Assembly: GCA_902557645.1 (NCBI GenBank)
Contig: CACEAP010000004.1
Coordinates: 11,803-75,802, forward strand
DNA length: 64,000 bases
Direction of reading: 5' to 3'
Source of the DNA: an uncultured SAR86 cluster bacterium
Lineage (GTDB): Bacteria > Pseudomonadota > Gammaproteobacteria > Magnimaribacterales > D2472
A program made the translations under genes and the position numbers. The notes under the pieces are model-generated. The model did no database searches. It was not told the DNA's origin and worked only from the letters and a program-made list of their open reading frames with translations. Positions within the stretch are counted from its first letter, which is position 1; each line of letters begins with the position of its first letter. This document shows, piece by piece, positions 6,414-48,244 of the stretch.

Positions 6414-6415
6414 TA

Positions 6416-15151: not shown

Positions 15152-15327
15152 AACTATCTCCCAGAACAAAGTGTTCTATAAACTGGGCGTCTAAGATATG
15201 TAAAAAATAAAAATGTCTCTTTAAATTAAGATCTAAGCAAAGCAGTAATTTGTAGTGACAATTTAAATAATTAATATTTTTATGTCAAATAAAAATTATT
15301 TATTGTATTTAAAGCATTAATAAAGCT

Positions 15328-27380: not shown

Positions 27381-28895
27381 ATGCAAAATATTAGCAAATC
27401 TAGGTTTTTATTATCCGTTTCACTTATTCTTTTAATTACAGGAATGGTTTCTGCAAATTCCGATGTTTCAGAAGCTTTATTTCTGCAATTACAAGCTTTT
27501 TTATCTAATTATTTTGGATGGATGATTATAATCCTTGCAAATGGTTTTTTAATATTTTCAATCTATCTTTTATTTACAAAATATAAAAATATTAGACTTG
27601 GTGGTGCTGATGCCAAGCCCTCATATACATATATAAACTGGATTGCTATGCTTTTTAGCGCTGGTTTAGGTATTGGATTACTTTTTTATGGAGTAGCTGA
27701 GCCAGTTATGCATATGAATTCATATCCAGGAATGATTGATGGAGATAATTCATATAATGCAGGCAAAGCAATTAATTTAGCAAATCTGCATTGGGGCCTT
27801 CATGGGTGGGCTATCTATTCATCATTAGGTTTGTGTTTTGCATTTGCTTCTTATAATAAAAAGTTACCTTTTAGAGTTAGCTCACTGCTTGGTGAAAAAG
27901 TTTCAACTAATAAGCCTCTAGCTATTTTGATTGATGTTATTGCAATACTTACAACTGTTTTTGGTATAACAACATCATTAGGTCTTGGCGCTATGCAAAT
28001 AAGTGCAGGCATGTCTCATATTTTTGGAATAGAAGAATCCTTCACTAATTACGTTTATATAATAATAGTTATAACTCTTTTAGGCTTAACTAGTGTTTCA
28101 TTAGGATTAAATGCTGGAATTAAAAAACTCTCACAGATTAATATGATTATTGCAAGTGGATTGCTTTTTTTAGTATTCGCATTAGGCCCTACTGTATTTA
28201 TTCTTAATGCTTTAGTTCAAAATTTTGGAGCTTATTTAAATTCATTAATTCAATCAGCAACATGGACAGAAGCATATGATTCAACAGCATGGCAAGATGG
28301 TTGGACCTTATTTTATTTTACCTGGTGGTTTGCCTGGGCTCCATTTGTATCTTTGTTTATTGCAAGAATATCTTATGGAAGAACAATCAAAGAATTTATA
28401 ATAGGTGTTTTGTTTGTGCCTTCTTTAATAGTGTTTTTATGGATGGGAGTTTTTGGCAATGCTGCGATTTATCAAGTTATAAATAATACCAGCGAAATTA
28501 GTCAAATTGTTGCAAATAATATGAATGTTGCGCTATTTACTTTATATGATGTTTATCCCTTAGCTCAACCATTATCAATTGTTTCATTAATATTAATAGT
28601 TACCTTTTTTGTAACATCATCAGACTCAGGTGCATTGGTAGCATCAATGCTATCTTCTAAAGAGCAGACTGACATCAACGATGATTCACCAATTCTATCA
28701 AGGGTAACTTGGGCAATATTATTGGGTATAGTAGCAGCTGTGTTACTTTATGCAGGTGGGCTGACTGCACTTCAAACTTCAGTGGTGATTACAGGTGTTC
28801 CTTTTGCAATTATTGTAGGATTTGCTTGCTTGAATTTATTAAGAGGATTGAAAGAATTAGATGATGCGCCACCAAGACATATAAACTCCGATTAG
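27381..28895 (+). CDS. BCCT family transporter (copy A)
   Basis: BCCT signature WTLFYFTWWFAWAPFVSLFIARISYGRTIKEF; 504 aa, 12 TM pattern. Confidence 0.9.
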   Translation: MQNISKSRFLLSVSLILLITGMVSANSDVSEALFLQLQAFLSNYFGWMIIILANGFLIFSIYLLFTKYKNIRLGGADAKPSYTYINWIAMLFSAGLGIGLLFYGVAEPVMHMNSYPGMIDGDNSYNAGKAINLANLHWGLHGWAIYSSLGLCFAFASYNKKLPFRVSSLLGEKVSTNKPLAILIDVIAILTTVFGITTSLGLGAMQISAGMSHIFGIEESFTNYVYIIIVITLLGLTSVSLGLNAGIKKLSQINMIIASGLLFLVFALGPTVFILNALVQNFGAYLNSLIQSATWTEAYDSTAWQDGWTLFYFTWWFAWAPFVSLFIARISYGRTIKEFIIGVLFVPSLIVFLWMGVFGNAAIYQVINNTSEISQIVANNMNVALFTLYDVYPLAQPLSIVSLILIVTFFVTSSDSGALVASMLSSKEQTDINDDSPILSRVTWAILLGIVAAVLLYAGGLTALQTSVVITGVPFAIIVGFACLNLLRGLKELDDAPPRHINSD

Positions 28896-29316: not shown

Positions 29317-30747
29317 ATGTCAATAAGTATGACCAAGATAAGACTATCAACAAAATTTGCTTATGGTGTAGGTGCTATTGGGGAATCTAGTGTTATATGG
29401 CTTTTTAGCACCCTAGCGTTTTTCTATTACAACCAAGTAATAGGTTTATCTGGAACTCTTGCAGGATTAGCAGTGTTGATAGCTACAATCTTTGATGCTA
29501 TTTCAGATCCATTGGTAGGATCAATCTCTGATAATTATAAATCAAGATTAGGTAGGAGACATCCTTTTATGTTCGCTGCGCCTCTACCAGCAATGATATG
29601 TATTTATTTTATTTTTACACCCCCTTCAGGCCTTGATCAAATAGCAATATTTGCTTGGTTTGCAATATTTACTATTCTGCTTAGATTAAGTATTACTTTA
29701 TACACAATACCTCATTTAGCTTTGGGTGCAGAGCTTTCAGACGACTATATCGAAAGATCAAACATCATGAGCTTTAACAATGTTTTTGCATATACAGGGG
29801 TAATTATTATGCATGTGTATGTATGGTTTTTGATCTTTCCTAATATAGATGGATATGAAATGGGTCAACTTTCAAAAGATGCCTATCCTCCTATAGTATT
29901 TTTTAGCTGTATATTAATTGGTACTGCTATGACGGCCTCAGCATTCTTTACAAAAGACCAAATCCCCAACCTCAAACAAGCAGATGCAAGAAATGAAAAT
30001 AATCTTGCCTTAAGATTTTTTAAAGATATATTTGCAGTATTAAAAAATCCTAATTACCTATACCTGTTACTAGGAATTTTTTTCTTATCAATATTAATCG
30101 GTACCCATGAAACTTTGGGTCTTTATATGTATACCTTTTATTGGAAATTAAGCCCCATTCAAACTGGTTGGTTGATCATGAATAATGTATTTGGGTATGC
30201 GATAGGTTTTATTATTACCAGTAAATTACATAAAAAATTTGATAAGCCAATAATTATTGTTTTATCTGCAATTCTGTTAAGTTTATTCTGGTCATTAGCT
30301 GTAATATTAAGTTTGTTTGGATTAGCCCCTGCGCCTGCTTCGTGGGATTTAGTAATTTTTATAATAATATTAGGCTCTGTCGCTGCAGCTGGTGGATCTA
30401 TTTTGCATATAAGTGTGATGTCAGCATTAGCTGATGTTTGTGATGAACATGAGTTGCTTACAGGATACCGACAAGAAGGAATCTTTTATTCAGCAAGATC
30501 ATTCTTTGCAAAAACCTCAGCTGGAGTAGGTCATGTCATAGCAGGTGTAGCGCTTGATATTATTAATTTTCCAAGAGGAGATATAAATGCAGAGGTTACA
30601 GAATCCATGCTTTTTAATTTAGGATTGCTTGATGGTCCTTTTGCAATGATATGGGGTTTAATTGCTGCAGTTTTTTATTCAGGATATAAAATTAATAACA
30701 AATATCATGCAGAAATTAGACAAAAACTTAATAAAAAAAATATATAA
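29317..30747 (+). CDS. GPH (MelB-type) cation symporter
   Basis: DPLVGSISDNYKSRLGRRHPFMF motif; 476 aa, about 12 TM. Paralog of 5004..6413. The start could instead be the ATG at 29329. Confidence 0.85.
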   Translation: MSISMTKIRLSTKFAYGVGAIGESSVIWLFSTLAFFYYNQVIGLSGTLAGLAVLIATIFDAISDPLVGSISDNYKSRLGRRHPFMFAAPLPAMICIYFIFTPPSGLDQIAIFAWFAIFTILLRLSITLYTIPHLALGAELSDDYIERSNIMSFNNVFAYTGVIIMHVYVWFLIFPNIDGYEMGQLSKDAYPPIVFFSCILIGTAMTASAFFTKDQIPNLKQADARNENNLALRFFKDIFAVLKNPNYLYLLLGIFFLSILIGTHETLGLYMYTFYWKLSPIQTGWLIMNNVFGYAIGFIITSKLHKKFDKPIIIVLSAILLSLFWSLAVILSLFGLAPAPASWDLVIFIIILGSVAAAGGSILHISVMSALADVCDEHELLTGYRQEGIFYSARSFFAKTSAGVGHVIAGVALDIINFPRGDINAEVTESMLFNLGLLDGPFAMIWGLIAAVFYSGYKINNKYHAEIRQKLNKKNI

Positions 30748-30759
30748 TTAATATAAAAA

Positions 30760-31314
30760 ATGGATGCTATTAAAAATATTACTGAAAGGAATTCTGCAAG
30801 AGAATTAATCGAGCCTCATCCATCTAAAGATGAGATGCAAATAGTTTTTAAAGCTGCTTTAAGAGCCCCAGATCATGCGTGGCTAAGACCTTCAAAATTT
30901 ATTCAAGTTAGTGGAGATAAAAGAAAAAAACTATCTGATATTTTCTTAAAAACTGCTCGTGAATTAAATGACGAATTAACAGAACTGCAAATAGAGAAAT
31001 ATCATAACGCCCCATTTCGAGCCCCAATGATAATTATTTTAACTTCCAGTCCAAAGGAACACCCTAAAGTTCCAGCAATTGAACAAATTATCTCAACAGG
31101 ATGTGCTGGTCAGAATATTCTTCTAAGCTTAAATGCATTGGGTTATGGCGCGATCTGGAGAACAGGGACCTTTGCATTTAATAAACAAATATCCAAAAAT
31201 CTTGGGTTAGAAGATGGTTCAGAGGTAATAGGTTATATTTATACTGGTACTATGACTGGATCAAATAAAAAAATTCCTAATTTGAATATTGATGAATATG
31301 TTAATGTTTGGTAA
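30760..31314 (+). CDS. nitroreductase family protein (YdjA-like)
   Basis: 184 aa with RNSARELIEPHPSKDEM...AALRAPDH near the N-terminus and a GYGAIWRTG region typical of small NAD(P)H nitroreductases. Confidence 0.85.
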   Translation: MDAIKNITERNSARELIEPHPSKDEMQIVFKAALRAPDHAWLRPSKFIQVSGDKRKKLSDIFLKTARELNDELTELQIEKYHNAPFRAPMIIILTSSPKEHPKVPAIEQIISTGCAGQNILLSLNALGYGAIWRTGTFAFNKQISKNLGLEDGSEVIGYIYTGTMTGSNKKIPNLNIDEYVNVW

Positions 31315-31374
31315 AAACAAATATTAATTAAATGTTATATTTATTTATATAATTTAAATAAATAAAGGTCCTGA

Positions 31375-32574
31375 ATGAAAATTTTTTCTATAGCGTTTTT
31401 GGTTGTAGCTCTAATAGCTGCTTTTGTATACGGTCCTGGAGCTATGAGGGTTTATAGAATTATGCATTTATATGATGAAGATAAGATTGCAAATAACTTT
31501 ATTAATATGAATAAGTTATTTACAACATCAGAACCAATTCAGCCTTCTTCTAAAGCAAAACCATTACCTAAATCAGATAAACCTTTTTCTCTTCCAAGTA
31601 CTTTTTATTTTGAAGATAAAGATCAAGATCTAAATGCAGCATTGAAACATTTTAAAACTGATGGACTTTTAATCATTAAAGAAGGTGAAATTGTTTATGA
31701 AGAATATTTCAATGGTAATAGTCAAACAACAAGACATATATCATGGTCAGTTGCTAAATCATTTCTATCATCGCTTGTTGGTATTGCAGTTAATGATGGA
31801 TTGATCGATGATATTAATGATCCTATTACAAAGTATTTACCTGATTTTAAAAATACTGGATATGACGGGGTTACGATTAAAAATATTTTACAAATGTCTT
31901 CTGGGGTTTTATTTAATGAAGATTATGCTGACCCAAATTCAGATATAAATAAATTTGGAGTAGCTATTGCAAGAGGAACATCATTTCGAGACTTTGCTAA
32001 AACTTTAACAAAAGATAAAGAACAAGGAACATATAATCATTATGTAAGTATAGATTCGCAAATGTTAGGCCTCTTACTTGATAAGGTGACAGATATGCCG
32101 CTGAGAGAATATTTACAAATGCATATTTGGGAAAAAATTGGAATGGAAGATGAGGCCTATTATTTAGCTGATAATGAAGATGTAGATTTGGCATTAGGTG
32201 GTTTAAATGCAACTCTAAGAGATTATGCAAAATTTGGATTATTATATTTAAATAAAGGTAAATGGGATAACGAACAAGTTGTCCCTGAAGCTTGGGTTGA
32301 TGCTTCTCATACTATGGATCTTCCTCATCTTCAGCCAGCTGCTGGTGATGATTTATCCTCAAGTGATTGGGGATATGGATATCAATGGTGGGTTCCAGGG
32401 TTTCCAAATACTGATTACACTGCTTCTGGAGTTTACAATCAATATATATATGTGGATCCTGTTACTGAAACAGTTATAGCAAAAATATCATCAAATCATA
32501 GGTTTACATCAGAAAAAGAATATTCAAAAGCTGCTCATGTTGCTATGTTTAGAGCAATTGCTCAAACTCAATAG
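31375..32574 (+). CDS. membrane-anchored/secreted serine hydrolase, beta-lactamase family
   Basis: N-terminal hydrophobic anchor, SxxK motif (SWSVAKS), and YGYQWW near the C-terminus. Confidence 0.85.
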   Translation: MKIFSIAFLVVALIAAFVYGPGAMRVYRIMHLYDEDKIANNFINMNKLFTTSEPIQPSSKAKPLPKSDKPFSLPSTFYFEDKDQDLNAALKHFKTDGLLIIKEGEIVYEEYFNGNSQTTRHISWSVAKSFLSSLVGIAVNDGLIDDINDPITKYLPDFKNTGYDGVTIKNILQMSSGVLFNEDYADPNSDINKFGVAIARGTSFRDFAKTLTKDKEQGTYNHYVSIDSQMLGLLLDKVTDMPLREYLQMHIWEKIGMEDEAYYLADNEDVDLALGGLNATLRDYAKFGLLYLNKGKWDNEQVVPEAWVDASHTMDLPHLQPAAGDDLSSSDWGYGYQWWVPGFPNTDYTASGVYNQYIYVDPVTETVIAKISSNHRFTSEKEYSKAAHVAMFRAIAQTQ

Positions 32575-32582
32575 GTGTAAAT

Positions 32583-33359
32583 ATGAGCAATTTAAGTAAA
32601 AATCCTGTCGCTATTATAACTGGCGGAAGTAGAGGAATTGGAGCTGCAACTGCCCTATTGCTTGCATCAAAAGGTTGGAATATTGCAATTACTTGTTCTA
32701 GTACTTTGGAAGATGCAAATTGTATTATCAAAAAATGTGAAAAAGTTAACAATATAGAGGGTATAGCAATCCAAGCAGATGTCTCAATTGATGAAGAGTG
32801 TCAAAAAACAATCCAAGAAACTGTAAAAAAATGGGGCCGAATTGATGCATTGATTAATAATGCTGGTACCAGTAAATTTGCTTGGGATCATTCTGATTTA
32901 GAACAGCTTGATGTAGATGATTTTTTAAGAATATATTCGGTTAATCTTGTTGGACCTTATCAAATGGTAAAACATGCTAAGCCTTATTTATTAAAAAGTT
33001 CAAATCCTAGCATTACTAATATTTCTTCAATAGCAGGAATTAAGGGAATAGGAAGTTCTGTAGCTTATGCAGCATCAAAAGGTGCTTTAAACACAATGAC
33101 TATTTCGATGGCAAGAAACTTAGGACCAATAAGAGTTAATGCTGTTTGTCCTGGTTTTGTGGAAGGGGAATGGTTGAAAGCAGGCTTGGGTGATGAAATG
33201 TTTAACGCAGCAAAAGAAAATCTTGAATTAAAAGTACCATTAAAAGCAGTAGCTAATCCAGATAGTGTTGCCCAATCAGTGTTTTCATTTGTTGAAATTA
33301 ATAAAATTGTTACTGGTCAGCTCTTAATAGTTGATGGTGGTCACCATCTCGAGCTTTAA
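32583..33359 (+). CDS. SDR family oxidoreductase
   Basis: TGGSRGIGAA cofactor motif, NNAG, and catalytic YAASKGAL. Confidence 0.9.
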   Translation: MSNLSKNPVAIITGGSRGIGAATALLLASKGWNIAITCSSTLEDANCIIKKCEKVNNIEGIAIQADVSIDEECQKTIQETVKKWGRIDALINNAGTSKFAWDHSDLEQLDVDDFLRIYSVNLVGPYQMVKHAKPYLLKSSNPSITNISSIAGIKGIGSSVAYAASKGALNTMTISMARNLGPIRVNAVCPGFVEGEWLKAGLGDEMFNAAKENLELKVPLKAVANPDSVAQSVFSFVEINKIVTGQLLIVDGGHHLEL

Positions 33360-33402
33360 ATAAGTATTGAAAGATATTTTAAAATTATGTTAATTTAAAT
33401 AA

Positions 33403-34785
33403 ATGAGATATAGAAATTTTATATTTACTTTTGCGCTTAGTTTTTCATTTATAACAATAGGAGCGCCATTTGATTCAACTTATGCTCCTCAAAATTCACC
33501 AATAATATTTTTAAAAAATGCGAATATTTATGATGGTGAAGGTAATGAATTGCTTGGATATGATTTATTAGTAAAAAACGGTCAAATTCAAGCTATTGGA
33601 AAAAATCTTTTATTAAATGAGACAGGTAAAGTTCTTTCATATGATCTAACTAATCAATGGGTTACTCCTGGAATAATTGATATTCATTCTCATATGGGTG
33701 TTTATTCTGCACCAGGTGTTAAGACAAGCTCTGATGGTAATGAATCAACAAGCCCTGTAACTGCAGATGTATGGGCAGAGCATTCTGTATGGACTCAAGA
33801 TCCTCAGTTTTCCTTAGCACTTCAGGGTGGTGTTACAACTTTTCATGTTCTTCCTGGATCTGCAAATCTAATAGGAGGAAGAGGCACAACTTTTAAAAAT
33901 ATACAAAGCAATACTATTCAAGGTATGAAATTTCCTAAAGCGCCTCATTCATTAAAAATGGCCTGTGGTGAAAATCCAAAAAGAGTCTATGGTAGTAGAA
34001 AAAGAGCTCCATCAACTAGAATGGGTAATGCTGCTGGCTATAGAAAAGCATGGATTGATGCAGCTGAATATAGAGATGAATTAAATTCTTATGTAAGTAA
34101 ATCCGCTTCTGCTAAAGAAATAGTTAACCCCCCTACCCGTGATCTTGAGATGGATACACTTGCAGGTGTCTTAAATGGCGAAATCCTAGTACATAATCAC
34201 TGCTATAGAGCTGAAGAAATGGTAGTAATGATAGATATTGCAAATGAATTTGGATACAAAATTACAGCTTTTCATCATGCTGTCGAAGCATACAAAATTG
34301 CTGATTTATTAGCAGATAATAATATTTGTGGTGCTTTATGGGCTGATTGGTGGGGATTTAAACATGAAGCTTACGATATGGTTCAAGAGAATATTGCAAT
34401 TGTTGATCAAGCAAGAGGTGGCAAAGGTTGCGCTATTGTTCATTCAGATGATGCAATTGGAATTCAGCATCTTAATCAAGAAGCAGCAAAAGCACTTGCA
34501 GCTGGGAATCGAGCAGGATTTGATATAAGTAAAGCTAGAGCAATGAAATGGATTACTTTAAATCCAGCTCAGGCTGCTGGCATTGAAGATGTAACAGGGT
34601 CATTGGTCAAAGGTAAAGATGCTGATATTGTAATATGGAATATGGATCCATTTAGCGTCTATGCTAAAGCTCAAAAAGTTTTTATTGATGGTAATTTAAT
34701 GTTTGATAGAGACAACCTATTAACCAAACCAGTGTCTGATTTCGATCTTGGGATTATTCAGCCTAATTTGAGTAGAACAGAATGA
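33403..34785 (+). CDS. periplasmic amidohydrolase-superfamily enzyme
   Basis: Signal peptide, HxH metal motif (GIIDIHSHMG), late AIVHSDD, and a GSLVKGKDADIVIWN tail typical of this superfamily. Confidence 0.85.
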   Translation: MRYRNFIFTFALSFSFITIGAPFDSTYAPQNSPIIFLKNANIYDGEGNELLGYDLLVKNGQIQAIGKNLLLNETGKVLSYDLTNQWVTPGIIDIHSHMGVYSAPGVKTSSDGNESTSPVTADVWAEHSVWTQDPQFSLALQGGVTTFHVLPGSANLIGGRGTTFKNIQSNTIQGMKFPKAPHSLKMACGENPKRVYGSRKRAPSTRMGNAAGYRKAWIDAAEYRDELNSYVSKSASAKEIVNPPTRDLEMDTLAGVLNGEILVHNHCYRAEEMVVMIDIANEFGYKITAFHHAVEAYKIADLLADNNICGALWADWWGFKHEAYDMVQENIAIVDQARGGKGCAIVHSDDAIGIQHLNQEAAKALAAGNRAGFDISKARAMKWITLNPAQAAGIEDVTGSLVKGKDADIVIWNMDPFSVYAKAQKVFIDGNLMFDRDNLLTKPVSDFDLGIIQPNLSRTE

Positions 34786-36002
34786 ATAAAATACATTTAA
34801 TTACTGTTTTTATTTTTTCTTTAAGTTTTACTCTAAATGCAGATATCTTAATTAAAAACGGAAATATATACTCTGGCGATTCTGCACCTTTTATTGGTGA
34901 TATTTATATCAAAGATGGGAAAATTCATTCTATTGGTTCATTAAATATAAAGGCATCTAAAGAAATAGATGCTCAAGGTAAAATAGTTACCCCAGGCTTT
35001 ATTGCTCCTATGACATTAATTGGAATTGTTGAAATTAACTCTTTGGATGTTACTAGAGATGATGAGTCCGATTATTTAAATATGGGCTTTAGTATTTTCA
35101 GAGCGTACAACCCTAACTCAACTTTAATCCCCTGGAATCGTGCTAACGGTATTACTTCGGCTATATCTATTCCGCAACAAACCTCAATGCCGCTTGCTGG
35201 TATGGGTTCATATTTTATCTTAGATGGAAATATGAATATATCTGGTTCTAAAGATATGATGATGCTAGGTAGAATTGGTGCATCATCAGGATCGCGGAGT
35301 GAGGATCTGGATCTTTTAGAAAATCTTATCAGTTTAGGCAAACTTGCAAAGAATAGACCCTACGAAAAAGTAATTGAATCTCCAATAGCAGTATTTTTTG
35401 AACTTTTAATCCAAGATATTGAGGCTTTAGATAAAGTAGCAAATGAAGGCCTGCCTCTAGTAATTAAAACTAATCGTGCTTCTGATATTAAGCATCTAAT
35501 AGATATTAAAAATAAATATAAGTTAAATATGATTTTAGCAGGCGTTGAGGATGCACCAATTGTGATTGATGAACTTGCTGCTTCTGAAATACCTGTGATT
35601 ATTAATCCTATGGATAATATTCCAGATTCTTTTGATGAGTTATCAAGCTCATTGGAATTGTCAGCTATATTAAGTAATGCAGGTATAACTGTCTTATTTG
35701 ATACTTCTAGATCGCATAATTATCACCTTATTAGACAAGGAGCAGGCAATGCTGTTGCTTATGGTATGGATTATTTAGATGCTATAGCAGGATTAAGTGC
35801 TAATGTAGCGAATGTATTTGACCTTAAAGATAGAGGCTCAATTACTAAAGGTTATTATGCTGACATTGCTATATGGGAATCTGATCCGCTTGAGCCTGCC
35901 TCTATCCCCTCTTATGTCTTTATTAATGGTATTGAAAGTGACTTAACGACTCGATCATCTCGCCTAAAAGATAGATATATTAAAAAATTAGACAAAAAAT
36001 AA
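34782..36002 (+). CDS. amidohydrolase-like paralog lacking the HxH motif
   Basis: Signal peptide. The start overlaps the upstream stop (ATGA). It keeps the family tail GSITKGYYADIAIWES, but the position of HxH reads TPGFIAPMTLIG. Confidence 0.75.
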   Translation: MNKIHLITVFIFSLSFTLNADILIKNGNIYSGDSAPFIGDIYIKDGKIHSIGSLNIKASKEIDAQGKIVTPGFIAPMTLIGIVEINSLDVTRDDESDYLNMGFSIFRAYNPNSTLIPWNRANGITSAISIPQQTSMPLAGMGSYFILDGNMNISGSKDMMMLGRIGASSGSRSEDLDLLENLISLGKLAKNRPYEKVIESPIAVFFELLIQDIEALDKVANEGLPLVIKTNRASDIKHLIDIKNKYKLNMILAGVEDAPIVIDELAASEIPVIINPMDNIPDSFDELSSSLELSAILSNAGITVLFDTSRSHNYHLIRQGAGNAVAYGMDYLDAIAGLSANVANVFDLKDRGSITKGYYADIAIWESDPLEPASIPSYVFINGIESDLTTRSSRLKDRYIKKLDKK

Positions 36003-36158
36003 GTTATTTTTTAAAATTTTTTGTTGAAAACCTTATCATCAAAGGATTTATGCATATTTAATAAACGTAAAAAATTAGTTAAAAAAATAGCATTAAGTAA
36101 TATATCCATATATTATATACATCAGATACAACTAATTATTCATTTTTAGGGGATACTT

Positions 36159-38960
36159 ATGAAAATTTTGTCGAAACTTTTATTAAGCTTTGTTATAAGC
36201 TTTACAACGTTTGGTTCTTTCAATATTTCTGCACAAGAAGTAGAAGAAGTTGTTGTTACAGCAACAAGAAGGGAAGAATCAATTCAAGATGTTGCTATTT
36301 CTATTCAGGCTTTTAGTGCTGATAATTTAGCTGCTGCACAAATTACAGAAAGTGCTGACCTTGCTGATTACATGCCTGGATTTAGTTATGCGCATGGAAT
36401 TGGATCAGGTTCTGCAACTGGCGTTCGAGGAGTTGCTGGTGCAGCTATCGGTGCTGGAACCACAGCTTCTGTTCAAATGGCAATTAATGGCCATGGTTTA
36501 AATGCAAGTGCATTTGGTGAAATAGGCTTTCTTGATGTTGAACGTGTTGAGGTCTTAGCTGGTCCTCAAGGAACTTTATTTGGTCGTAATGCTGTTGCTG
36601 GTCTAGTTAATCTAGTTAGCGCAAGACCAACTGAAGAAATGGGTGGTTATGCTAATTTTGAAATGGGTAACTATGGTTCAGAAAGAATTAGTACTGCTGT
36701 AAATATTCCTTTCGGAGACAATGTAAGAACAAGACTTGCTTATTCATCATTTATGAAAGATGGTTGGATTAAAAACGTTGGTACTGGTAATGACCTTGAT
36801 GGTCGAGACGCTTATGGTGTTCGTTTATCAGTTGATGTTGATCTTCCTAACGAAGCTTTACTAAGATTTAATTCAGCGCAATACTCATCAGATGATAATA
36901 GATTAAATGTTGCTGGTACGTATTGTGCTAGAGATTCTTTTTATGGATGTTTGCCATGGGAAAAAGGTAATCTTAATGAGCCTTATCATGTTGCCGGAAC
37001 TGTGGGTGGTCTAATAGACGTGCTAACTTTCTTATCCCCAAGTGTTAATGCTGATCCTTACGCAAATACTGTTTACACAACAAGTATTGATACAGTTAAC
37101 AAAAATAGAGATCCGCACAGAACTCAAGTTATTGAGAATTCACAAATTCAATACATTAAAGATCTTGATAATCTTACTTTAACTGCAAAATACTCATACT
37201 CTACTAGAGATTATGATCATAGAGATGATAATGATCATTCAAACTCAACTGAGCCTTTTGCAACTGCTTTAGGTATTGTTCCTGGATGGGATGTTCAGTT
37301 TGAATGTTTCCCTTCTACTACTGTTACCTCAACAGAAGCAGTTGAGTGTTCACAAGCAGACGAAGTAACAAGACAAGCAGAATTTACTGTGGTTTCTGAC
37401 TATGATGGTCCTCATAATTTCTCTGCTGCTGTATATCAATGGCAGTCTGATTTTGATAATGACTATCATGTACAAACATCTAGTTATCAAATGCTTAGAG
37501 ATTTTGAACTACATCCTTATATGGCTAGCCTTTTTGGTGGAGCACTTAATGATTTAGGTGGTGCTGCGGCATGGACTGTATTTGGTGGTGTTTTTGCGGC
37601 AGTTGCTCCTTCTTTACTTGGAGGTGTAATTGATTTACCAACAGCTCTTGCCCAAATTACAGGTGGTACTTTGGCAACATGTGGTACCTTGGGAGGATTA
37701 TGTGAAAGAAGTCTTCCTAATAAAATGGGTGGATTAATAACTGACCAAAATGGTATAACAAAATCTACTGCCTTCATGGGTGAATATTATTATCAAATGA
37801 ATGAAGATACTAAATTTACTTTTGGTCTTAGATATAATGATGATACATATGAAAGTACTATATTTAGTTCTTTATCAGATATCTCTAATACAAACTACGT
37901 ATATACAGGACCTGATTATTCAAGAACAAATCCTGGAACTTCAAGAGAGCAAACAGAGAACAGTGCTTTAACATATAAGCTTGCAGTTCAGCATAACCTT
38001 TCAGATGACAGTATGGTGTATGCATCTTATGCAACTGGTTTAAAAGCTGGTGGTACATCACCTAATGAATTCTCTATTCAGGTGCCTTATGCAGAAGAAG
38101 AATCCGCATCACTTGAAATTGGTACAAGAAATATTCTTATGGATGGTAGGTTATTATTAAATGCTACATTATTTGAAATGGATGTTACTAACGGGCAATT
38201 AGGTCTTATTTATAATGCTGGAGCTGTTAACAAAACCTTTGACTATGTAAATACAGGTCTTGAAGGACAGATGAAGTTCTTTGCTACAGATAATACTGAG
38301 ATTGAATTTAACTGGTTAGCTTTAGATTCAGAAATGGGTGAAGCGCTTCAAGATGATCCTCTTAACCCTAACCAAGCAACTACTATCCTTGGAAAAGGAA
38401 GTGGAACTGCTGGTTTAACAGCACTTTTACAAGCTATTGGAATGGATGCAGCTACAGCTGCTGGAACTGCTGCTGCTGTTGGCGCACAGTTACCAAATGC
38501 GGGTCTTACTAACTGGGCATTAACTGATGCTGGAATCCTTGGATCTTATCAAGGAGCATTAATAACTATTCCTGGTTTAGCTGAGATTGTTGGTGTTCAA
38601 TTAGCAGGCAACAGATATCCTGGAACTACAGAATTAGATTACAACCTTTCAATAACTCAGAGATTCCCACGTGATGGTGGAGCTACTGACTTAAGATTGT
38701 CTTATATTCATAAAGGACAAAGAGAAGGAAGTATATTTAATATTGATAAATTCTCAGTTCCAGAAGCTAAATATTTTGATATGACTGTAATCTATACGCC
38801 AAGCTCTGAAGAGTGGTATGTAGGTGGTTTTGTTAAGAATATTGGTGACAAAAGATATAACATCGGTACAGAGCAATCAAGTACACTTCAAGGTGGTATG
38901 TCTCAAGTAACTTATGCTCAACCTAGAACATATGGTTTAACATTTGGAATGAATTTCTAA
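36159..38960 (+). CDS. TonB-dependent receptor with Gly/Ala-rich loop insertions
   Basis: Signal peptide, EEVVVTATRRE TonB-box/plug region, VEVLAGPQGTLFGRNAVAGLVNLVS, C-terminal ...YGLTFGMNF. SD AGGGGA upstream. Confidence 0.9.
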   Translation: MKILSKLLLSFVISFTTFGSFNISAQEVEEVVVTATRREESIQDVAISIQAFSADNLAAAQITESADLADYMPGFSYAHGIGSGSATGVRGVAGAAIGAGTTASVQMAINGHGLNASAFGEIGFLDVERVEVLAGPQGTLFGRNAVAGLVNLVSARPTEEMGGYANFEMGNYGSERISTAVNIPFGDNVRTRLAYSSFMKDGWIKNVGTGNDLDGRDAYGVRLSVDVDLPNEALLRFNSAQYSSDDNRLNVAGTYCARDSFYGCLPWEKGNLNEPYHVAGTVGGLIDVLTFLSPSVNADPYANTVYTTSIDTVNKNRDPHRTQVIENSQIQYIKDLDNLTLTAKYSYSTRDYDHRDDNDHSNSTEPFATALGIVPGWDVQFECFPSTTVTSTEAVECSQADEVTRQAEFTVVSDYDGPHNFSAAVYQWQSDFDNDYHVQTSSYQMLRDFELHPYMASLFGGALNDLGGAAAWTVFGGVFAAVAPSLLGGVIDLPTALAQITGGTLATCGTLGGLCERSLPNKMGGLITDQNGITKSTAFMGEYYYQMNEDTKFTFGLRYNDDTYESTIFSSLSDISNTNYVYTGPDYSRTNPGTSREQTENSALTYKLAVQHNLSDDSMVYASYATGLKAGGTSPNEFSIQVPYAEEESASLEIGTRNILMDGRLLLNATLFEMDVTNGQLGLIYNAGAVNKTFDYVNTGLEGQMKFFATDNTEIEFNWLALDSEMGEALQDDPLNPNQATTILGKGSGTAGLTALLQAIGMDAATAAGTAAAVGAQLPNAGLTNWALTDAGILGSYQGALITIPGLAEIVGVQLAGNRYPGTTELDYNLSITQRFPRDGGATDLRLSYIHKGQREGSIFNIDKFSVPEAKYFDMTVIYTPSSEEWYVGGFVKNIGDKRYNIGTEQSSTLQGGMSQVTYAQPRTYGLTFGMNF

Positions 38961-38978: not shown

Positions 38979-39008
38979 AAAAAGCCCAGTTTAACTGGGC
39001 TTTTTTTT
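38979..39008. terminator. bidirectional rho-independent terminator between convergent genes
   Basis: A5 + stem AGCCCAG(T)/(A)CTGGGCT + T8. Confidence 0.7.
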
Positions 39009-39015
39009 ATCTAAA

Positions 39016-39705
39016 CTATATATTTATTGAATCAAAGGGTTCTTCTATTACACCAGTATTTTTAAAAGAGACTATATAAGAATTCTTTTTATTTCCAAAA
39101 TTAACAGATTTTATTGGCTTACCATCAATTAAATGTAAGGCAGCATGGCCTTCGATCCCTATACATTCTGTTAGATTATTTTGAACTAGTTGATCTTTTA
39201 CATATGGCCTTCTGCTAGGCTCTTCGTCATAATGCGGGCAACATATACCATCAACAAAACCTAAACAATTTAAAATAGCTAAATTATCTGCCCATGAGTC
39301 TGTTATACCTTTATCAAACCAACAAATTGCACCAGCACTGACACCGCACATTATCACCCCTTGATCATATGCCTCCTTAAGAAGCAAGTCTAAACCCCAT
39401 TCCTTCCATACTGCTAGCATACTCTTAGTATTTCCACCGCCTACAAATATGATATCTTGTTTTCTAATATGATCTTTTAAATTGATTGTTCTTTTAAAAA
39501 AGTCTATGTGAGTTGGATTACAATTAAGTTTAGTGAAAACGTCATAAAAATTAACTTTATAAGCATCATTATCTCCTGTTGCTGTTGGAATAAAGCATAC
39601 ATTAGGATTCTTATTATTTTGTTGCTTAATAATATATTCCTCTATTTTTCTATCTGAAGGGTTTCTTCCAAAACCCCCTCCGCCAATTGCAATAATTTGT
39701 TTCAT
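39016..39705 (-). CDS. peptidase S51 / type-1 glutamine-amidotransferase-like protein (peptidase E family)
   Basis: IIAIGGGGF, FIPTATGD, IIFVGGGNTKSML, and nucleophile region CGVSAGAICWF. Confidence 0.8.
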   Translation of the reverse strand: MKQIIAIGGGGFGRNPSDRKIEEYIIKQQNNKNPNVCFIPTATGDNDAYKVNFYDVFTKLNCNPTHIDFFKRTINLKDHIRKQDIIFVGGGNTKSMLAVWKEWGLDLLLKEAYDQGVIMCGVSAGAICWFDKGITDSWADNLAILNCLGFVDGICCPHYDEEPSRRPYVKDQLVQNNLTECIGIEGHAALHLIDGKPIKSVNFGNKKNSYIVSFKNTGVIEEPFDSINI

Positions 39706-40377
39706 CTAAACATTCCGATTAAATTGAATTATTTTTTGTTTCCACTTATTTGTAAAAAAATCAAATTCATGGCCTTTAATTGTAAATTCCTTGAATATTA
39801 AATCTCTATCAATCATTAAAATTACAACTTGTTTAATATTTGTACTAAACATTACATTATGTGCATTTGCATAAGCGCAACCCTGAAGAAAATAATCCTC
39901 TATCCATTCACGGCGTTTAATTCGTTTTGCAGTTTTAAAATCAATAATTGATGGCACACCTTTTACTAAACCAACACAATCAGCCGTGCCGGCATACAAA
40001 CCATCAAGTATAAGACCAACCTCAAGACCCCAAGCTTCGTCTATAGAATTAAGTCCATCTGTTATGAATTTGTTAGTAATACTTTTTGCTATAAGGTCTG
40101 TTCTTTTTTCTGAAAAATTATCCCATTCATTGCCATTTAGATATTCTTCAATAGCCTCATGAACTGCTGACCCAATATCAGTGCTTTCCTTAACCACCCT
40201 CTCAGCTTCTTTTTCTCCAACCCGCTTTTTCCAATCTTCGATTCCTTTTTTAGAAGAAGTACCTGATAATATTGTAGTAACGCTAGGAACTGGGGTCCCA
40301 GTAGAATCTATATAATGACGACCTCTATCGAGATCAACTCTCTCCAAGGTTGGATATTGATATTTATTAGAAATCAT
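39706..40377 (-). CDS. RecB-like PD-(D/E)XK nuclease family protein
   Basis: N-terminal HY.....G...PSVTTIL. Nuclease core GTADCVG-x13-IIDFKTAKR (D...D-x-K) followed by a QxxxY motif (FLQGCAY). No Fe-S Cys cluster. Confidence 0.7.
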   Translation of the reverse strand: MISNKYQYPTLERVDLDRGRHYIDSTGTPVPSVTTILSGTSSKKGIEDWKKRVGEKEAERVVKESTDIGSAVHEAIEEYLNGNEWDNFSEKRTDLIAKSITNKFITDGLNSIDEAWGLEVGLILDGLYAGTADCVGLVKGVPSIIDFKTAKRIKRREWIEDYFLQGCAYANAHNVMFSTNIKQVVILMIDRDLIFKEFTIKGHEFDFFTNKWKQKIIQFNRNV

Positions 40378-42347
40378 TTTTCAATATGCTCATCAAATAA
40401 TTTTTCCAGGGGTAAAAGATCATTTTCAAAATTTTTCCAATAATCTAGACCAGATTTATATATGGGTTGTCTAACTTGCTCTGCACTTGGTGTCTTAACA
40501 GGTCTTTTAGATTTATAAAATTCAAAACACTCTTTTTCAAAAGGAAGATTGCAATATTGAAGCAGTTTTATTATTTCATTTTCAGTATCTGAGACCATAT
40601 TTGCATACTTTACTGTGTAAATTTGATTTGGATAAATACTATGCCAATGATCCATAATATTTATATAGTCATTGTAAAATAATCCTAAGTCCTCTAGATC
40701 GTATGTAAAAAGCTGTCCTTTTGCAAAAAACTGTTTAAAACAGCTAAAACAAGTATCCATAGCTCCTCTGCGTGTATCTATAATCTTGGCATTAGGTAAT
40801 ATAGTTTTTATAAATCCAATATGCATAAAATTATTAGGCATTTTATCTATAAAGAATGGCGCATCGCCCCTACTCCATCTAGTTTGATCAATATATTTAT
40901 TACCCAGCTCTGATATTTGCATTTCTGATAATTTCTTTAAGAAACTAGGATATGCCTCTTTGTTTTTTCCTATTGCTTCAACTTCTCTTGATAGATTCAT
41001 AATGTTAGGCAGTTCTTGAGTTCCATCTACCATCGAATGAGATGAAATAATTTGATCAATTAAGGTTGATCCAGACCTTGGTAATCCCAAAATAAAAATT
41101 GGATCTGGATCATTACACTTTGATTTTTTTATCTTCTTAACTACATCTTTGTTAAAAAACTCAATACTTTTATTTACTCTGTCTGAATTTTCTTGAGATG
41201 AATATTTAATTAATTTTCTTTTAATCCAATTGCCTTCACTGTACATTTTAAAAGATTGCTTAAAATCTTTTTTTACCTCAAAGGCTTTACCCAATGCAAA
41301 TAGTAGCTGAACCTTTTCATTTTCAGAAATATCATTTGATAAAGTTTTTTGCATCTCTTCAATCTGCTTTGATGAAAATTCATATGTTTTTAAGTTAGCT
41401 AAACTCCAATAAGCTTCGCCAGAATTAGGATTATATTTAACAGCATTTATATATGACTCAACTGACTTTTCATTATTTCCAATAGTATTGTATGCATGTC
41501 CTAAACTTAAATAGGCCCTTGGACTATCTGGCTGGAGTGATACACATCTTGAGTATGCGACTATGGCTTCTTTATAACGAGCCATCATAATTAAAATAGT
41601 TCCATAATCGGCCCAAACGCTTGCATTTTTTGGATCTAATGCAAGTATATTATCCATAGATTTTTGTGCTTTATCTAATTGGCCAGACAATCTGTAAACA
41701 AGAGATATATTGCGCCATAAGAGACTATAAGACGGTGCTAGTTTAATGGCTTTTATTAGAAGCTGTTCTGCAATTTTATACTTACCCCCTTTGGTAGCTA
41801 AAATTCCTAATAACCTTAAAGCATCGACGTTTTCTGGATCTTCTTTTAATATATTTGTATAAACTTCTTCTGCTAACTTTACCCTTCCAGCTTTTGCATG
41901 TCTTATTCCTTTATATAAATTTGAATAGGTGGTATTTCTTTCTAGAAATTCTTGAATAACATCATCAGCCTCTTCTTCTTTATCCAGTTCTACCAAAATA
42001 TTACTCAATTGTCGTAAAAGAGAAATATCAGGTTTAACATTTAATAGGTCTTTAAATTTTTTACAGGCTTCATATTTTTTATTTTGAAATAAAAGAATTT
42101 GAATTTCTTTCTCCAAGAGTTCGGTACTCTTTGGATTAATACTCAGTCCTTTTTGAATATAAATAAGAGCTTCAGATGGATCATTTTGCTTTATTGAAAT
42201 ATCAATAATTAAAACAATAGAATTTAGCTCATTTGGAAAAATCTTTAATATCTCTAATAATTGAGCTTTAGCTAGAGATAACTTATTATCATTAATTAAA
42301 TCAATTGCATTTTCGTAGGCATTTTTAGGAGAATCTAAATCTTTCAT
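40374..42347 (-). CDS. TPR-repeat sulfotransferase family protein (copy B)
   Basis: TPR repeats, then GLPRSGSTLIDQII, IDTRRGAMDTCFSCFKQ and KTPSAEQVRQPIYKSGLDYWKNF. Its stop overlaps the nuclease start (ATGA). Confidence 0.85.
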   Translation of the reverse strand: MKDLDSPKNAYENAIDLINDNKLSLAKAQLLEILKIFPNELNSIVLIIDISIKQNDPSEALIYIQKGLSINPKSTELLEKEIQILLFQNKKYEACKKFKDLLNVKPDISLLRQLSNILVELDKEEEADDVIQEFLERNTTYSNLYKGIRHAKAGRVKLAEEVYTNILKEDPENVDALRLLGILATKGGKYKIAEQLLIKAIKLAPSYSLLWRNISLVYRLSGQLDKAQKSMDNILALDPKNASVWADYGTILIMMARYKEAIVAYSRCVSLQPDSPRAYLSLGHAYNTIGNNEKSVESYINAVKYNPNSGEAYWSLANLKTYEFSSKQIEEMQKTLSNDISENEKVQLLFALGKAFEVKKDFKQSFKMYSEGNWIKRKLIKYSSQENSDRVNKSIEFFNKDVVKKIKKSKCNDPDPIFILGLPRSGSTLIDQIISSHSMVDGTQELPNIMNLSREVEAIGKNKEAYPSFLKKLSEMQISELGNKYIDQTRWSRGDAPFFIDKMPNNFMHIGFIKTILPNAKIIDTRRGAMDTCFSCFKQFFAKGQLFTYDLEDLGLFYNDYINIMDHWHSIYPNQIYTVKYANMVSDTENEIIKLLQYCNLPFEKECFEFYKSKRPVKTPSAEQVRQPIYKSGLDYWKNFENDLLPLEKLFDEHIEK

Positions 42348-42425
42348 ATAATTAAGAATATTAATGACCTTGCGAAGGATTGGAATAAGTCGCTAATATT
42401 TATTCCTATTTTACTATCATTTGCA

Positions 42426-43838
42426 ATGTGTGTGTATGCGATTAGCGATCCAGCAACAACTGCATCACAATTATCTAATATATATAGCATTGTTGCTTTA
42501 AAGTTTGAGACTGTTTTTCAATATGGTGCTTTGGTAATTTTACTATTTTTATTATTACTAGCATTTAGTAAAGCTGGATCTAAAAAAGTTAGTATTGCTA
42601 GCTCTCCTAAATATTCATTCTTCTCTTGGTCATCAATGTTATTTGCCTCAGGTATGGGAGCTACTATTTTATATTGGTCACCGATTGAATGGTCCGCATA
42701 CTACAATGACCCCCCTTTTAATCTTGAGGTCGGATCAATTGAAGCAGTTAGAACTATAAATGCATATACCTCTTTTCACTGGGGATTTAGTGGCTGGGCA
42801 ATATATGCTTTACCAGCTGTAGCCTTTGCAATATCAATTACAAAAAACCCCACATCTTCATTAACCTTTGGATCGCTTTTAGTAAGTGATAATTTGCCTT
42901 TTAGTTATTTTTTTAAAACTATACTTGATATTTTTTTTATATTTGGAATTCTTGCTGGCGCTGGCGTTGGACTTGGTCTTTCATTTCCACTAATTGCTGA
43001 AATTGTTGCTACATTTCTAGGAATATCTTCTTCATTGGCCCTAGAGTTAATAATTCTTTTGATCTGCTTGTTCATAATTACCACTAGTGCATATTTAGGC
43101 ATAACTAAAGGCATAAAAAGACTAAGTAATATTAATATTGGGCTTTTAGGTCTCTTATTAATTTTTGTTCTTGTCGCAGGCCCAACAACATTTATTCTAT
43201 TTAATAGTCTTGATGTCTTATTGGTATACGGTACTAAATTCATACAAATGAGTACTTATGTTGGTGATAAGTTTGTACAGGACTGGACAGTGTTTTATTG
43301 GGCGTGGTGGCTGGCACTCGCACCTTATCTTGGTGTATTTTTTGTAAATATCTCAAATGGGAGAACTCTAAAAGAGTTGATTCTTGGAACAATTCTTATT
43401 GGTGGTTTTGGTTCGGTAATACATTTTTTAATACTAGGTAATTATTCTCTTCACTTATTTGAAAACAGTATTTTAAATGTCCCAGACCTATATGCATCAG
43501 AGAAGCCTACAAAGGTAATTGTAGATGTAATACTTACTCTCCCAATGAGTTACTTAATTTTATTTTTATATGGATTAATATCTATCATTTTCTTATGTAC
43601 TACCTATGATTCGTGTGCTTTCATCCTCTCACGTACTGCTATGAGAAGATCAGATATTTCACCCTCTAAAATTCTAAGAATAATATTTTCTATATTATTG
43701 GTTATTCAGCCTGCAATTCTTATGTATCTTGGAGGTGTTAATACTGTAAAATGGATGCTTGTAATTAGTGCTATTCCACTAATTTTTATTAACGTTTTAT
43801 TAATTGGTTATATTATTAAAAATGTACAAAAAATCTAA
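42426..43838 (+). CDS. BCCT family transporter (copy B); true start possibly upstream of the first ATG
   Basis: BCCT signature WTVFYWAWWLALAPYLGVFFVNISNGRTLKEL. The open frame continues upstream to 42339 and encodes a TM1-like segment without a canonical start codon. Confidence 0.8.
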   Translation: MCVYAISDPATTASQLSNIYSIVALKFETVFQYGALVILLFLLLLAFSKAGSKKVSIASSPKYSFFSWSSMLFASGMGATILYWSPIEWSAYYNDPPFNLEVGSIEAVRTINAYTSFHWGFSGWAIYALPAVAFAISITKNPTSSLTFGSLLVSDNLPFSYFFKTILDIFFIFGILAGAGVGLGLSFPLIAEIVATFLGISSSLALELIILLICLFIITTSAYLGITKGIKRLSNINIGLLGLLLIFVLVAGPTTFILFNSLDVLLVYGTKFIQMSTYVGDKFVQDWTVFYWAWWLALAPYLGVFFVNISNGRTLKELILGTILIGGFGSVIHFLILGNYSLHLFENSILNVPDLYASEKPTKVIVDVILTLPMSYLILFLYGLISIIFLCTTYDSCAFILSRTAMRRSDISPSKILRIIFSILLVIQPAILMYLGGVNTVKWMLVISAIPLIFINVLLIGYIIKNVQKI

Positions 43839-47215: not shown

Positions 47216-48244
47216 TTACTGATCAAATAGTCTATTTAAAAGATATTTTGAACCTTCTATCTTATCAATTTCTCTGCATTCATTATAGATAATTTCCGAT
47301 TGAATATTAGCTCTGCAGTAACCCTCATTTGATGTGATTCCGGGCCATGCGTGACCAGCTTCTGAATTAATAATTGCAGTTATAGTTACGTCATTATCAC
47401 AATTATAGTAAATAGTCTCTGAAGACCTAAAAGGTGAAGTTATTTTAGAGCTTTTAATATTTTTACAATTAAATTTTGAAGACCAAGAAGATGTGGTATT
47501 TTTAATAGGCTCATAATAATAACCACCTGAAGATTTAATTGATATTGGTGGAACTGATTTATCAAGTAAACCCCCATAAATTATAAGATTTATAGGTGAT
47601 TCAGGTACGCAGCTTAGTTTATGTGGCTGCATACCAACCACATTGATAACTCCATCAAAAATATCAGAGTATTTGCAACCGATTAATTGAGCCATCATGC
47701 CGCCATTACTAAGGCCCATAACATAACTTTTATCAACCGAGAACTCTTCATAAATTTTTAGGGTTATAGTTTTTATAAAATCTAAATCATTAACACAGCT
47801 TGTCCAATAACAAGAGTTTTGATTACTGCAACTTGGAAATGGAAGAGCGCTTTGTGAGTTATCTTCACATATTTTTACTTCTTTATTATTCTTAATTAAT
47901 GGTCCCAGATGATTCCATGAACTTGAATATACTGTTTGGGTTATTTTGGAACCATCTTGTGTTTGCATTTCATAGCTTGGATAAAAATACTTGCCCTGTG
48001 GATATACAACAATCAACCCTTGTTCTTCAGCATAACGATTAAAGCCACCAGTTGTTTCTTTTTCAAATCCAGATGCAGATCCTGAGAATCCATGCAGTCC
48101 TATAACTAATTTATAAGATTCTTTTTTAACAGTAGGTAAAAAGAGAAGATATGAACGCTCTTCACCAGCATGATTAACATTAACTCTTTCCATGCTATTT
48201 ATCACTGGAGCAAAGATTAATAATACATAGAAAAAAAATTTCAT
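47216..48244 (-). CDS. secreted PHB-depolymerase-family esterase (LpqC/feruloyl-esterase-like)
   Basis: Signal peptide, GLHGFSGSASGF, nucleophile GLSNGGMMA, and several Cys pairs. Confidence 0.75.
   Translation of the reverse strand: MKFFFYVLLIFAPVINSMERVNVNHAGEERSYLLFLPTVKKESYKLVIGLHGFSGSASGFEKETTGGFNRYAEEQGLIVVYPQGKYFYPSYEMQTQDGSKITQTVYSSSWNHLGPLIKNNKEVKICEDNSQSALPFPSCSNQNSCYWTSCVNDLDFIKTITLKIYEEFSVDKSYVMGLSNGGMMAQLIGCKYSDIFDGVINVVGMQPHKLSCVPESPINLIIYGGLLDKSVPPISIKSSGGYYYEPIKNTTSSWSSKFNCKNIKSSKITSPFRSSETIYYNCDNDVTITAIINSEAGHAWPGITSNEGYCRANIQSEIIYNECREIDKIEGSKYLLNRLFDQ

Follow-up and report, generated by a model that had tools for sequence, protein, structure and literature searches.

SAR86 ranks with the most abundant bacteria of ocean surface waters, and the gene described here, located on the minus strand at positions 39706-40377 of a 64,000-nucleotide stretch of DNA from an uncultured SAR86 cluster bacterium (contig CACEAP010000004.1, positions 11,803 to 75,802; this whole stretch is termed the window below), encodes an exonuclease of 223 amino acids, a PD-(D/E)XK enzyme that stands alone and belongs to the MGME1/phage family. 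It lies between two further minus-strand genes, one for a sulfotransferase of 657 amino acids that also contains TPR repeats (ST1, 40374-42347) and one for a Peptidase_S51 or PepE-like protein of 229 amino acids with a type 1 glutamine-amidotransferase fold (S51, 39016-39705). The explanation that is favored here, and that is held with good though not full confidence, is that a phage-derived MGME1-like exonuclease has been fixed in SAR86 and that the three genes are ordinary neighbors, not a functional system. SAR86 would then carry a conserved, expressed, phage-derived relative of MGME1, the significance of which is modest but real. MGME1 is a human disease gene and, together with POLG, Twinkle and POLRMT, forms part of a mitochondrial replication machinery that is phage-derived.

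Family, fold and active site of the nuclease

Profile scans of the nuclease gave no match in Pfam and none in NCBIfam, and the protein was identified only through PHROGs, searches of the PDB and structure prediction. It matches the profile phrog_298, "exonuclease", over its full length (E 2.1e-55; residues 4-217 align with positions 39-259 of the 293 in the profile), with weaker matches to phrog_1706, "CRISPR/Cas system associated" (6e-7), and to the exonuclease phrog_69. When the sequence was searched against the PDB, the sole significant match was human MGME1 (E 2e-5), to which it is 21-23% identical. An AlphaFold2 model (pLDDT 81.4, pTM 0.76) was compared with the PDB by Foldseek and the top nine matches were all human MGME1 (TM 0.66-0.79, E down to 3.8e-9), while the Cas4-like ACE1, RecE and AddA appeared at lower ranks (TM 0.4-0.5, E 1e-5 or worse). 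As modeled, the nuclease fits the MGME1 fold, in which long arch-forming helices are located ahead of a RecB-like core.

The PD-(D/E)XK signature is present as D133, D146-x-K148 and Q165xxxY169, and the motifs follow the order H (V), E (I), D (II), D-x-K (III) and Q-x3-Y (IV). The residues H73, E119, D133, D146, K148, Q165 and Y169 align with H180, E223, D238, D251, K253, Q271 and Y275 of MGME1, which were found by mutagenesis to be needed for activity (PMC3597694, PMC6237815), and all seven are invariant in 168-169 of the 169 aligned family members, the catalytic D/D/K residues of the orthologs included. A reading of the window made from its letters alone (the sequence-only reading) had recognized a RecB-like PD-(D/E)XK nuclease from the D...DFK and QxxxY motifs, and both the signature and the fold match to MGME1 agree with it. 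To judge from these residues, the nuclease is very probably an active enzyme.

That reading had also named the Cas4, RecB and lambda-Exo folds for comparison; here the PD-(D/E)XK fold was confirmed, and it is MGME1 and not Cas4, RecE or AddA that provides the best match. Nucleases of the Cas4, RecB/AddA or lambda-Exo/RecE type work with a partner (CRISPR adaptation proteins, a helicase or an annealase), and they resemble the SAR86 protein in having the PD-(D/E)XK fold and the RecB-type motif order and in acting on DNA ends, as is also reflected in the weak matches to phrog_1706 and phrog_69 and in the lower-ranked Foldseek matches to ACE1/Cas4, RecE and AddA. That the nuclease is of one of these types is nevertheless highly improbable. 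The structural match to MGME1 is far better (TM 0.7 versus 0.4-0.5, E 4e-9 versus 1e-5 or worse), the protein has no fused helicase, and the 10 kb on either side of the three genes contain neither a CRISPR or cas gene nor one for a helicase or an annealase. A Cas4 identity was rejected on two grounds, since C134 and C167 are the only cysteines of the protein, where Cas4 uses four to hold its Fe-S cluster, and since there are no cas genes within the same 10 kb.

The nuclease and MGME1/Ddk1 (PDB 5ZYT-5ZYW, 8XA9) each consist of a PD-(D/E)XK domain that stands alone and has much the same size in both. The nuclease has in common with that protein an N-terminal (I/V)PSVT motif as well as all seven active-site or DNA-contact residues, but it is the product of a bacterial chromosomal gene and lacks the mitochondrial presequence. 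MGME1 itself has a "structural pin" (W152/F173) and acts on single-stranded DNA (ssDNA) in both directions. Because the identity is only 21-23%, the E value 2e-5 and the nearest relatives are phage proteins, sequence comparison places the nuclease in the wider MGME1 family without making it an MGME1 ortholog. Ddk1/MGME1 was noted to group with archaeal and phage exonucleases, a phage origin was proposed for it, and Ddk1-like proteins proper were described as exclusive to Opisthokonta (Szczesny et al. 2013, PMC3597694).

By analogy with MGME1, the SAR86 nuclease would most likely thread free ssDNA ends or flaps under a helical arch and cleave them by two-metal catalysis involving H73, E119, D133, D146 and K148, while Q165 and Y169 grip the phosphate backbone, and its role in replication and repair is likely to be the removal of flaps, the processing of ends and the clearing of linear ssDNA. 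In NCBI records this gene and its orthologs P0004, P0010, P0029, P0056, P0062 and P0071 go by the name "preprotein translocase subunit TatA". This label is wrong and is a propagated misannotation; the name used by JGI for the SAR86 orthologs is "genome maintenance exonuclease 1".

Phage relatives and origin of the nuclease

The nuclease family comprises 3791 clusters at 50% identity (E <=1e-3) and resides mainly on large marine and enterobacterial phages. A family member is present in 992 GenBank phage records, all of them less than 60% identical to the query and led by Synechococcus/cyanophages, Salmonella and Vibrio phages and jumbo phages, and a homolog was found in at least 598 IMG/VR contigs. 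The SAR86 protein is 37-41% identical to proteins of cultured phages and 49-54% identical to those of marine viral contigs, and it has the same length and the same motifs as the phrog_298 proteins of the jumbo phages Atu_ph07, PA5oct, CBB and GAP32, of T4-like cyanophages and of the marine IMG/VR contigs. The association of this nuclease type with phages, which had been made from the N-terminal part of the sequence, is therefore supported by the phrog_298 match and by the phage records and viral contigs. A literature search found no phage member of phrog_298 that has been biochemically characterized.

In a neighbor-joining tree the nucleases of SAR86, which are 56-96% identical to the query and form a tight clade, are monophyletic, and their sister group consists of 18 marine viral contigs (49-54% identity). 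That the nuclease could be a domesticated phage gene had been suggested before, and with this sister relationship it is the best reading of the data. An ancestor of SAR86 would have acquired the gene from a marine phage, after which it would have been fixed as a conserved chromosomal gene at a single locus. No paper describing a chromosomal bacterial clade of MGME1-like genes was found in the literature search.

The phage copies and the SAR86 copy differ in their surroundings, the former being part of a conserved phage module and the latter lying among host metabolic genes and being vertically inherited. The module, as found in marine viral contigs, consists of a virion structural protein, two small open reading frames (ORFs), the nuclease, a tail-fiber-like protein, an ORF of 148 amino acids and NrdA. 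Its gene order around the nuclease homolog is conserved in five IMG/VR contigs (L057, L064, L068, L096 and L132) and also in L039 and L040, with a virion structural protein of 400-435 amino acids followed by ORFs of ~112 and ~105 amino acids and then the nuclease. The tail-fiber-like protein starts with ...(R/M)IQ(N/H/Q)RRG... and precedes the ORF of ~148 amino acids, and the large subunit of ribonucleotide reductase is present in two of the five contigs (L064 and L132) and in L040. Most ORFs of the module have no match in PHROGs. Four apparent genome matches (L039-L042) are phage-like contigs that were binned into metagenome-assembled genomes (MAGs).

Conservation and gene order in SAR86

Species-representative genomes were scanned with peptide patterns drawn from the nuclease of the window alone. 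This gave 53 loci, one per genome, including ~40 SAR86 species representatives at 56-90% identity, and the exact protein was found in 160 data blocks of ocean metagenomes. The nuclease is the most conserved gene of its neighborhood (63-71% identity), followed by S51 (60-67%), ST1 (~49%), the BCCT transporter (~45%) and the hydrolase (~39%). It is thus conserved in the lineage, at one locus in each genome where it was found, and with neighbors that vary, as described below.

The genes within 10 kb on either side of the trio encode a FabH-like protein, a hydrolase, a TonB receptor, a BCCT transporter, an amidohydrolase, an SDR protein, a beta-lactamase-fold protein, a nitroreductase and an MFS transporter, and the remainder of the window likewise encodes housekeeping and transport functions (FtsK, SerRS, a thioredoxin-reductase-like protein, a nucleoside transporter, MATE and others). 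The GC content is flat, with no shift at the locus, and no tRNA or att site was found there, the only tRNA being 20 kb away. A recent prophage or island was rejected on the grounds of the flat GC content, the lack of phage genes within 10 kb and the lack of a tRNA at the site.

It could also be supposed that the nuclease is what remains of a decayed prophage, or is a selfish gene of a mobile element, and has been kept by chance with no function for the host, and a family that is overwhelmingly phage-borne would be in keeping with this. Such an origin without function is, however, extremely improbable for a gene whose reading frame is intact and full length, whose catalytic residues are all invariant, and which is the most conserved gene locally across species that differ by 50-60% in the adjacent proteins. 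It occupies the same chromosomal position in ~40 species, metatranscriptome contigs indicate that it is transcribed in the sea, and it is accompanied by no other phage genes, no att or tRNA site and no GC shift.

When the neighbors in the window were mapped onto the loci of the genome scan, four arrangements were seen in SAR86. In the arrangement of the window (A), found in ~20 species, the order is TonB receptor, hydrolase, BCCT1, ST1, nuclease and S51. In A' (L002, L010, L016 and L024) the order is the same except that a gene for an S-methylmethionine:homocysteine methyltransferase lies between the nuclease and S51, and an A'-like insertion without ST1 upstream is seen in L008, L013 and L017. 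In arrangement B (11 genomes) BCCT1 is divergent from the nuclease, which is followed by a carboxylesterase, a TonB receptor, a TPR-sulfotransferase and S51, and in arrangement C (four genomes) the order is FabH-like, Hydrolase_4, nuclease and S51, without a sulfotransferase, BCCT or receptor block. The upstream neighbor of the nuclease is hence ST1, Hydrolase_4 or a divergent BCCT, and its downstream neighbor is S51, the methyltransferase or the carboxylesterase.

The inserted methyltransferase has 295-297 amino acids (6725-7612 in L002) and its name is taken from JGI; together with the adjacent BCCT transporters it hints at the import of methyl donors, such as S-methylmethionine, betaine or dimethylsulfoniopropionate. 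One further locus, L037 (FRAM18_bin311), is too error-ridden to be assigned to A', with the hydrolase, ST1, nuclease and S51 each split over two or three frames. It was rejected as a case of pseudogene formation, as frameshifts in every gene there point to long-read indel errors.

A second gammaproteobacterial lineage

A second chromosomal group of nucleases was found in marine gammaproteobacterial MAGs of 32-34% GC (L043-L047, L051 and L052, at ~6000-6700 in each). These proteins are 36-47% identical to the query and branch away from the SAR86 clade in the neighbor-joining tree, and their gene is located in an otherwise classical cluster with the order rlmE-ftsH-NUC-folP-glmM-tpiA-secG, where NUC is the nuclease. 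The ftsH-folP cluster was sought in the 64-kb window and is absent from it.

Since the nuclease is fixed and strongly conserved in SAR86 and stands beside ftsH and folP in another lineage, a housekeeping role is likely for it. If it is a housekeeping exonuclease acting on flaps or ssDNA, bacteria would here offer a counterpart to the phage-derived replication machinery of mitochondria, and the enzyme would also be a small, soluble-looking and tractable homolog with which to study the mechanism of the family. A broader idea, offered tentatively and considered slightly less probable than its contrary, is that streamlined marine Gammaproteobacteria took up a phage MGME1-like exonuclease on two or more independent occasions and made it a core nuclease of chromosome maintenance, paralleling the mitochondria of opisthokonts and maybe replacing canonical ssDNA exonucleases that were lost in streamlining. 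The first recruitment would be that in SAR86, beside metabolic genes, and the second that within the ftsH-folP housekeeping cluster.

Gene packing and transcription

The sequence-only reading described ST1, the nuclease and S51 as three tightly packed minus-strand genes, and this is correct in its ORFs and coordinates. The stop codon of ST1 and the start codon of the nuclease overlap in ATGA at 40374-40377, and the TAG stop codon of the nuclease (39706-39708) directly abuts the ATG of S51 (39703-39705). The window, whose closest protein relatives are labeled SAR86 cluster bacterium, is very compact throughout (32% GC, ~93% coding) and is rich in TonB-dependent receptors. Adjacent ORFs on the same strand form 36 pairs in it; 19 of these are separated by no more than 4 nt, 11 overlap or abut, and the median gap over all pairs is 4 nt. 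The packing of the trio is the genome background, and a stop/start overlap is the default state here. The ATGA overlap and the abutment accordingly reflect genome compaction and are not evidence of a shared function, and there is a negative lesson in this: in streamlined marine genomes stop/start overlaps are background and should not be counted as evidence for a system.

With hardly any room left between genes in this genome, ST1, the nuclease and S51 probably share a transcript. ST1 is separated by 78 bp (42348-42425) from a divergent gene for a BCCT family transporter (BCCT1, 42426-43838, plus strand; Pfam BCCT, E 5.6e-105), and these 78 bp are the likely promoter region of a three-gene transcript. 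A promoter scan gave a minus-strand match at 42436-42408 that is no better than chance, such matches being no commoner than in shuffled sequence. The likely 3' end of the transcript is a bidirectional hairpin resembling an intrinsic terminator at 38979-39005 (12-bp stem with five GC pairs, T runs on both sides), which lies between S51 and a convergent gene for a TonB-dependent receptor. A terminator scan revealed no terminator-like site between the three genes, and no obvious Shine-Dalgarno sequence precedes the start of either the nuclease or S51. In marine metatranscriptome assemblies, near-identical low-depth contigs cover all three genes; a single contig (40323-40580) spans the ST1/nuclease junction and none spans that of nuclease and S51.

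These observations bear on a more limited form of association, in which the three genes, unrelated in function, are an operon for the sake of co-regulation only, left with one promoter after the loss of intergenic regulatory DNA, and in which the nuclease depends on read-through from upstream or on translational coupling. This is reasonably probable, if somewhat short of being a confident conclusion. It would agree with the lack of a terminator inside the trio, the terminator after S51 and the 78-bp divergent region upstream, with the RNA contig across the ST1/nuclease junction, and with the lack of obvious Shine-Dalgarno sequences. It would also agree with the position of the nuclease relative to the upstream same-strand gene, which is close whichever gene that is (-4 to -11 nt for ST1 and +4 to +5 nt for Hydrolase_4, and so from -11 to +5 nt overall). 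On the other hand, the RNA evidence is thin, and a separate promoter is required for the nuclease in the B-type genomes, where it and BCCT are divergent. Moreover, such an operon is compatible with a phage-derived nuclease among ordinary neighbors and is not a truly exclusive alternative to it.

The three genes as a possible system

A stronger form of association was raised by the sequence-only reading, according to which, speculatively, the three genes might be a functional cassette with a layout like that of an anti-phage system, or the nuclease part of a DNA-modification function. In such a system sensing would fall to the TPR protein, action to the nuclease and processing to the S51 protein. 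Layouts with a TPR protein, a nuclease and a protease do exist among defense systems, the stop/start coupling is tight, with overlaps of ST1 and nuclease in ~20 SAR86 species, and the trio is located in one neighborhood in most SAR86 genomes. Even so, it is very unlikely that the trio is such a system. A scan of the three proteins against PADLOC-DB v2 was blank for the nuclease and S51 and gave only two TPR-level matches for ST1 (E 2e-3 to 4e-3). As this was nothing usable, and as the surroundings consist of transport and metabolic genes and are not a defense island, the defense-system reading was rejected.

The idea of a functional cassette fares no better, and synteny largely refutes it on the gene orders compared here. 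Many SAR86 genomes do not keep the unit together: the C-type and B-type lack ST1, the methyltransferase or the carboxylesterase is inserted, and S51 can be 5.5 kb away. Outside SAR86, in the ftsH-folP lineage and in the phage context, the nuclease is never found with a sulfotransferase or S51, and a paralog of the sulfotransferase lies with a BCCT transporter and a TonB receptor and no nuclease (see below). The packing is the norm of the genome, and the nuclease is conserved and vertically inherited, unlike defense genes, which are patchy. A single-locus gene that is conserved in the lineage while its neighbors change is, in essence, what the sequence-only reading had itself named as speaking against its proposal.

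Several points weigh against the view that the nuclease is phage-derived and that its neighbors are ordinary ones. The tree is a neighbor-joining tree without support values, and that the gene passed from phage to SAR86, and not the other way, is an inference short of proof. For the bacterial members, activity and role are predicted from their homology to MGME1, with which the identity is 21-23%, and the pattern scan, based on one protein, gives occurrences in the genomes found and not a prevalence over all SAR86 species. The RNA evidence comes from low-depth assembled metatranscriptome contigs, which can contain DNA. In most SAR86 species the trio stays within one 12-kb neighborhood, and the overlap of the ST1 stop with the nuclease start is kept in all A-type genomes, so there might be some regulatory coupling between ST1 and the nuclease.

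The sulfotransferase, the S51 protein and the uptake modules

The domains named for ST1 and S51 in the sequence-only reading are those that Pfam finds, Sulfotransfer_3 with TPR in the one and Peptidase_S51 in the other. In ST1, Sulfotransfer_3 (PF13469) matches over residues 416-604 (E 3.8e-43), in addition to many TPR families. The sequences PRSGST at 423 (like the 5'-phosphosulfate-binding motif, 5'-PSB) and RRGAMDTCFS at 526 (RRxxxDxxxS, like the 3'-phosphate-binding motif, 3'-PB) are taken to be the motifs that bind 3'-phosphoadenosine-5'-phosphosulfate (PAPS). ST1 is therefore predicted, from its domain and motifs, to be a member of the PAPS-type sulfotransferase family.

A second gene of this kind, ST2 (TPR plus Sulfotransfer_3, E 2e-46), is present on the minus strand at 22634-24595, and its product is 43% identical to ST1 over 505 amino acids. 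Both proteins are like other Sulfotransfer_3 proteins in having a TPR array and a PAPS-type domain with the 5'-PSB-like and 3'-PB-like motifs. ST2 adjoins a gene for a TonB-dependent receptor (24670-27117), beyond which is the divergent transporter gene BCCT2 (27381-28895), and this module, 15 kb from the trio, has a BCCT transporter and a TonB receptor but no nuclease. In the SAR86 loci BCCT1 has kept its place beside ST1 or the nuclease, and it is part of a conserved neighborhood of BCCT, hydrolase and TonB receptor. As ST2 is found with a TonB receptor and a divergent BCCT transporter, it is an uptake module that recurs as partner of the sulfotransferase, and the TPR-sulfotransferase belongs with the BCCT/TonB uptake modules and not with the nuclease. 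The presence of two modules of BCCT, TonB receptor and TPR-sulfotransferase suggests that SAR86 has a sulfation function linked to uptake, and these duplicated modules may deserve more attention than the trio.

The S51 protein matches PF03575 (E 2.5e-49), and its matches in the PDB are Lmo0363 (1e-8) and PepE (6e-6). Residues of the catalytic type, a GVSAG nucleophile elbow (S123) and a PHY histidine (H158), align with those of Lmo0363 and PepE, so that in its Ser elbow and His it is like the PepE-like enzymes. Its scores are, however, far below the NCBIfam equivalog cut-offs for PepE (43 versus 156 bits) and cyanophycinase (36 versus 127 bits), and for this reason it is neither of the two. 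It is predicted to be an independent PepE-like peptidase or amidohydrolase.

Two other ORFs of the window, at 13271-15169 (632 amino acids) and 47216-48244 (342 amino acids), have no Pfam match at E <=1e-5, and in the exact-match contigs the latter gene keeps its place beside Hydrolase_4. The ST2/BCCT2 module lies just beyond S51 in most SAR86 species. S51 and BCCT2 are ~1.2 kb apart in most other SAR86 species, while in the lineage of the window there is an extra ~10 kb between them (29317-38960), which contains genes for an MFS transporter, a nitroreductase, a beta-lactamase-fold protein, an SDR protein, two amidohydrolases and a TonB receptor of 933 amino acids and looks like a lineage-specific insertion.

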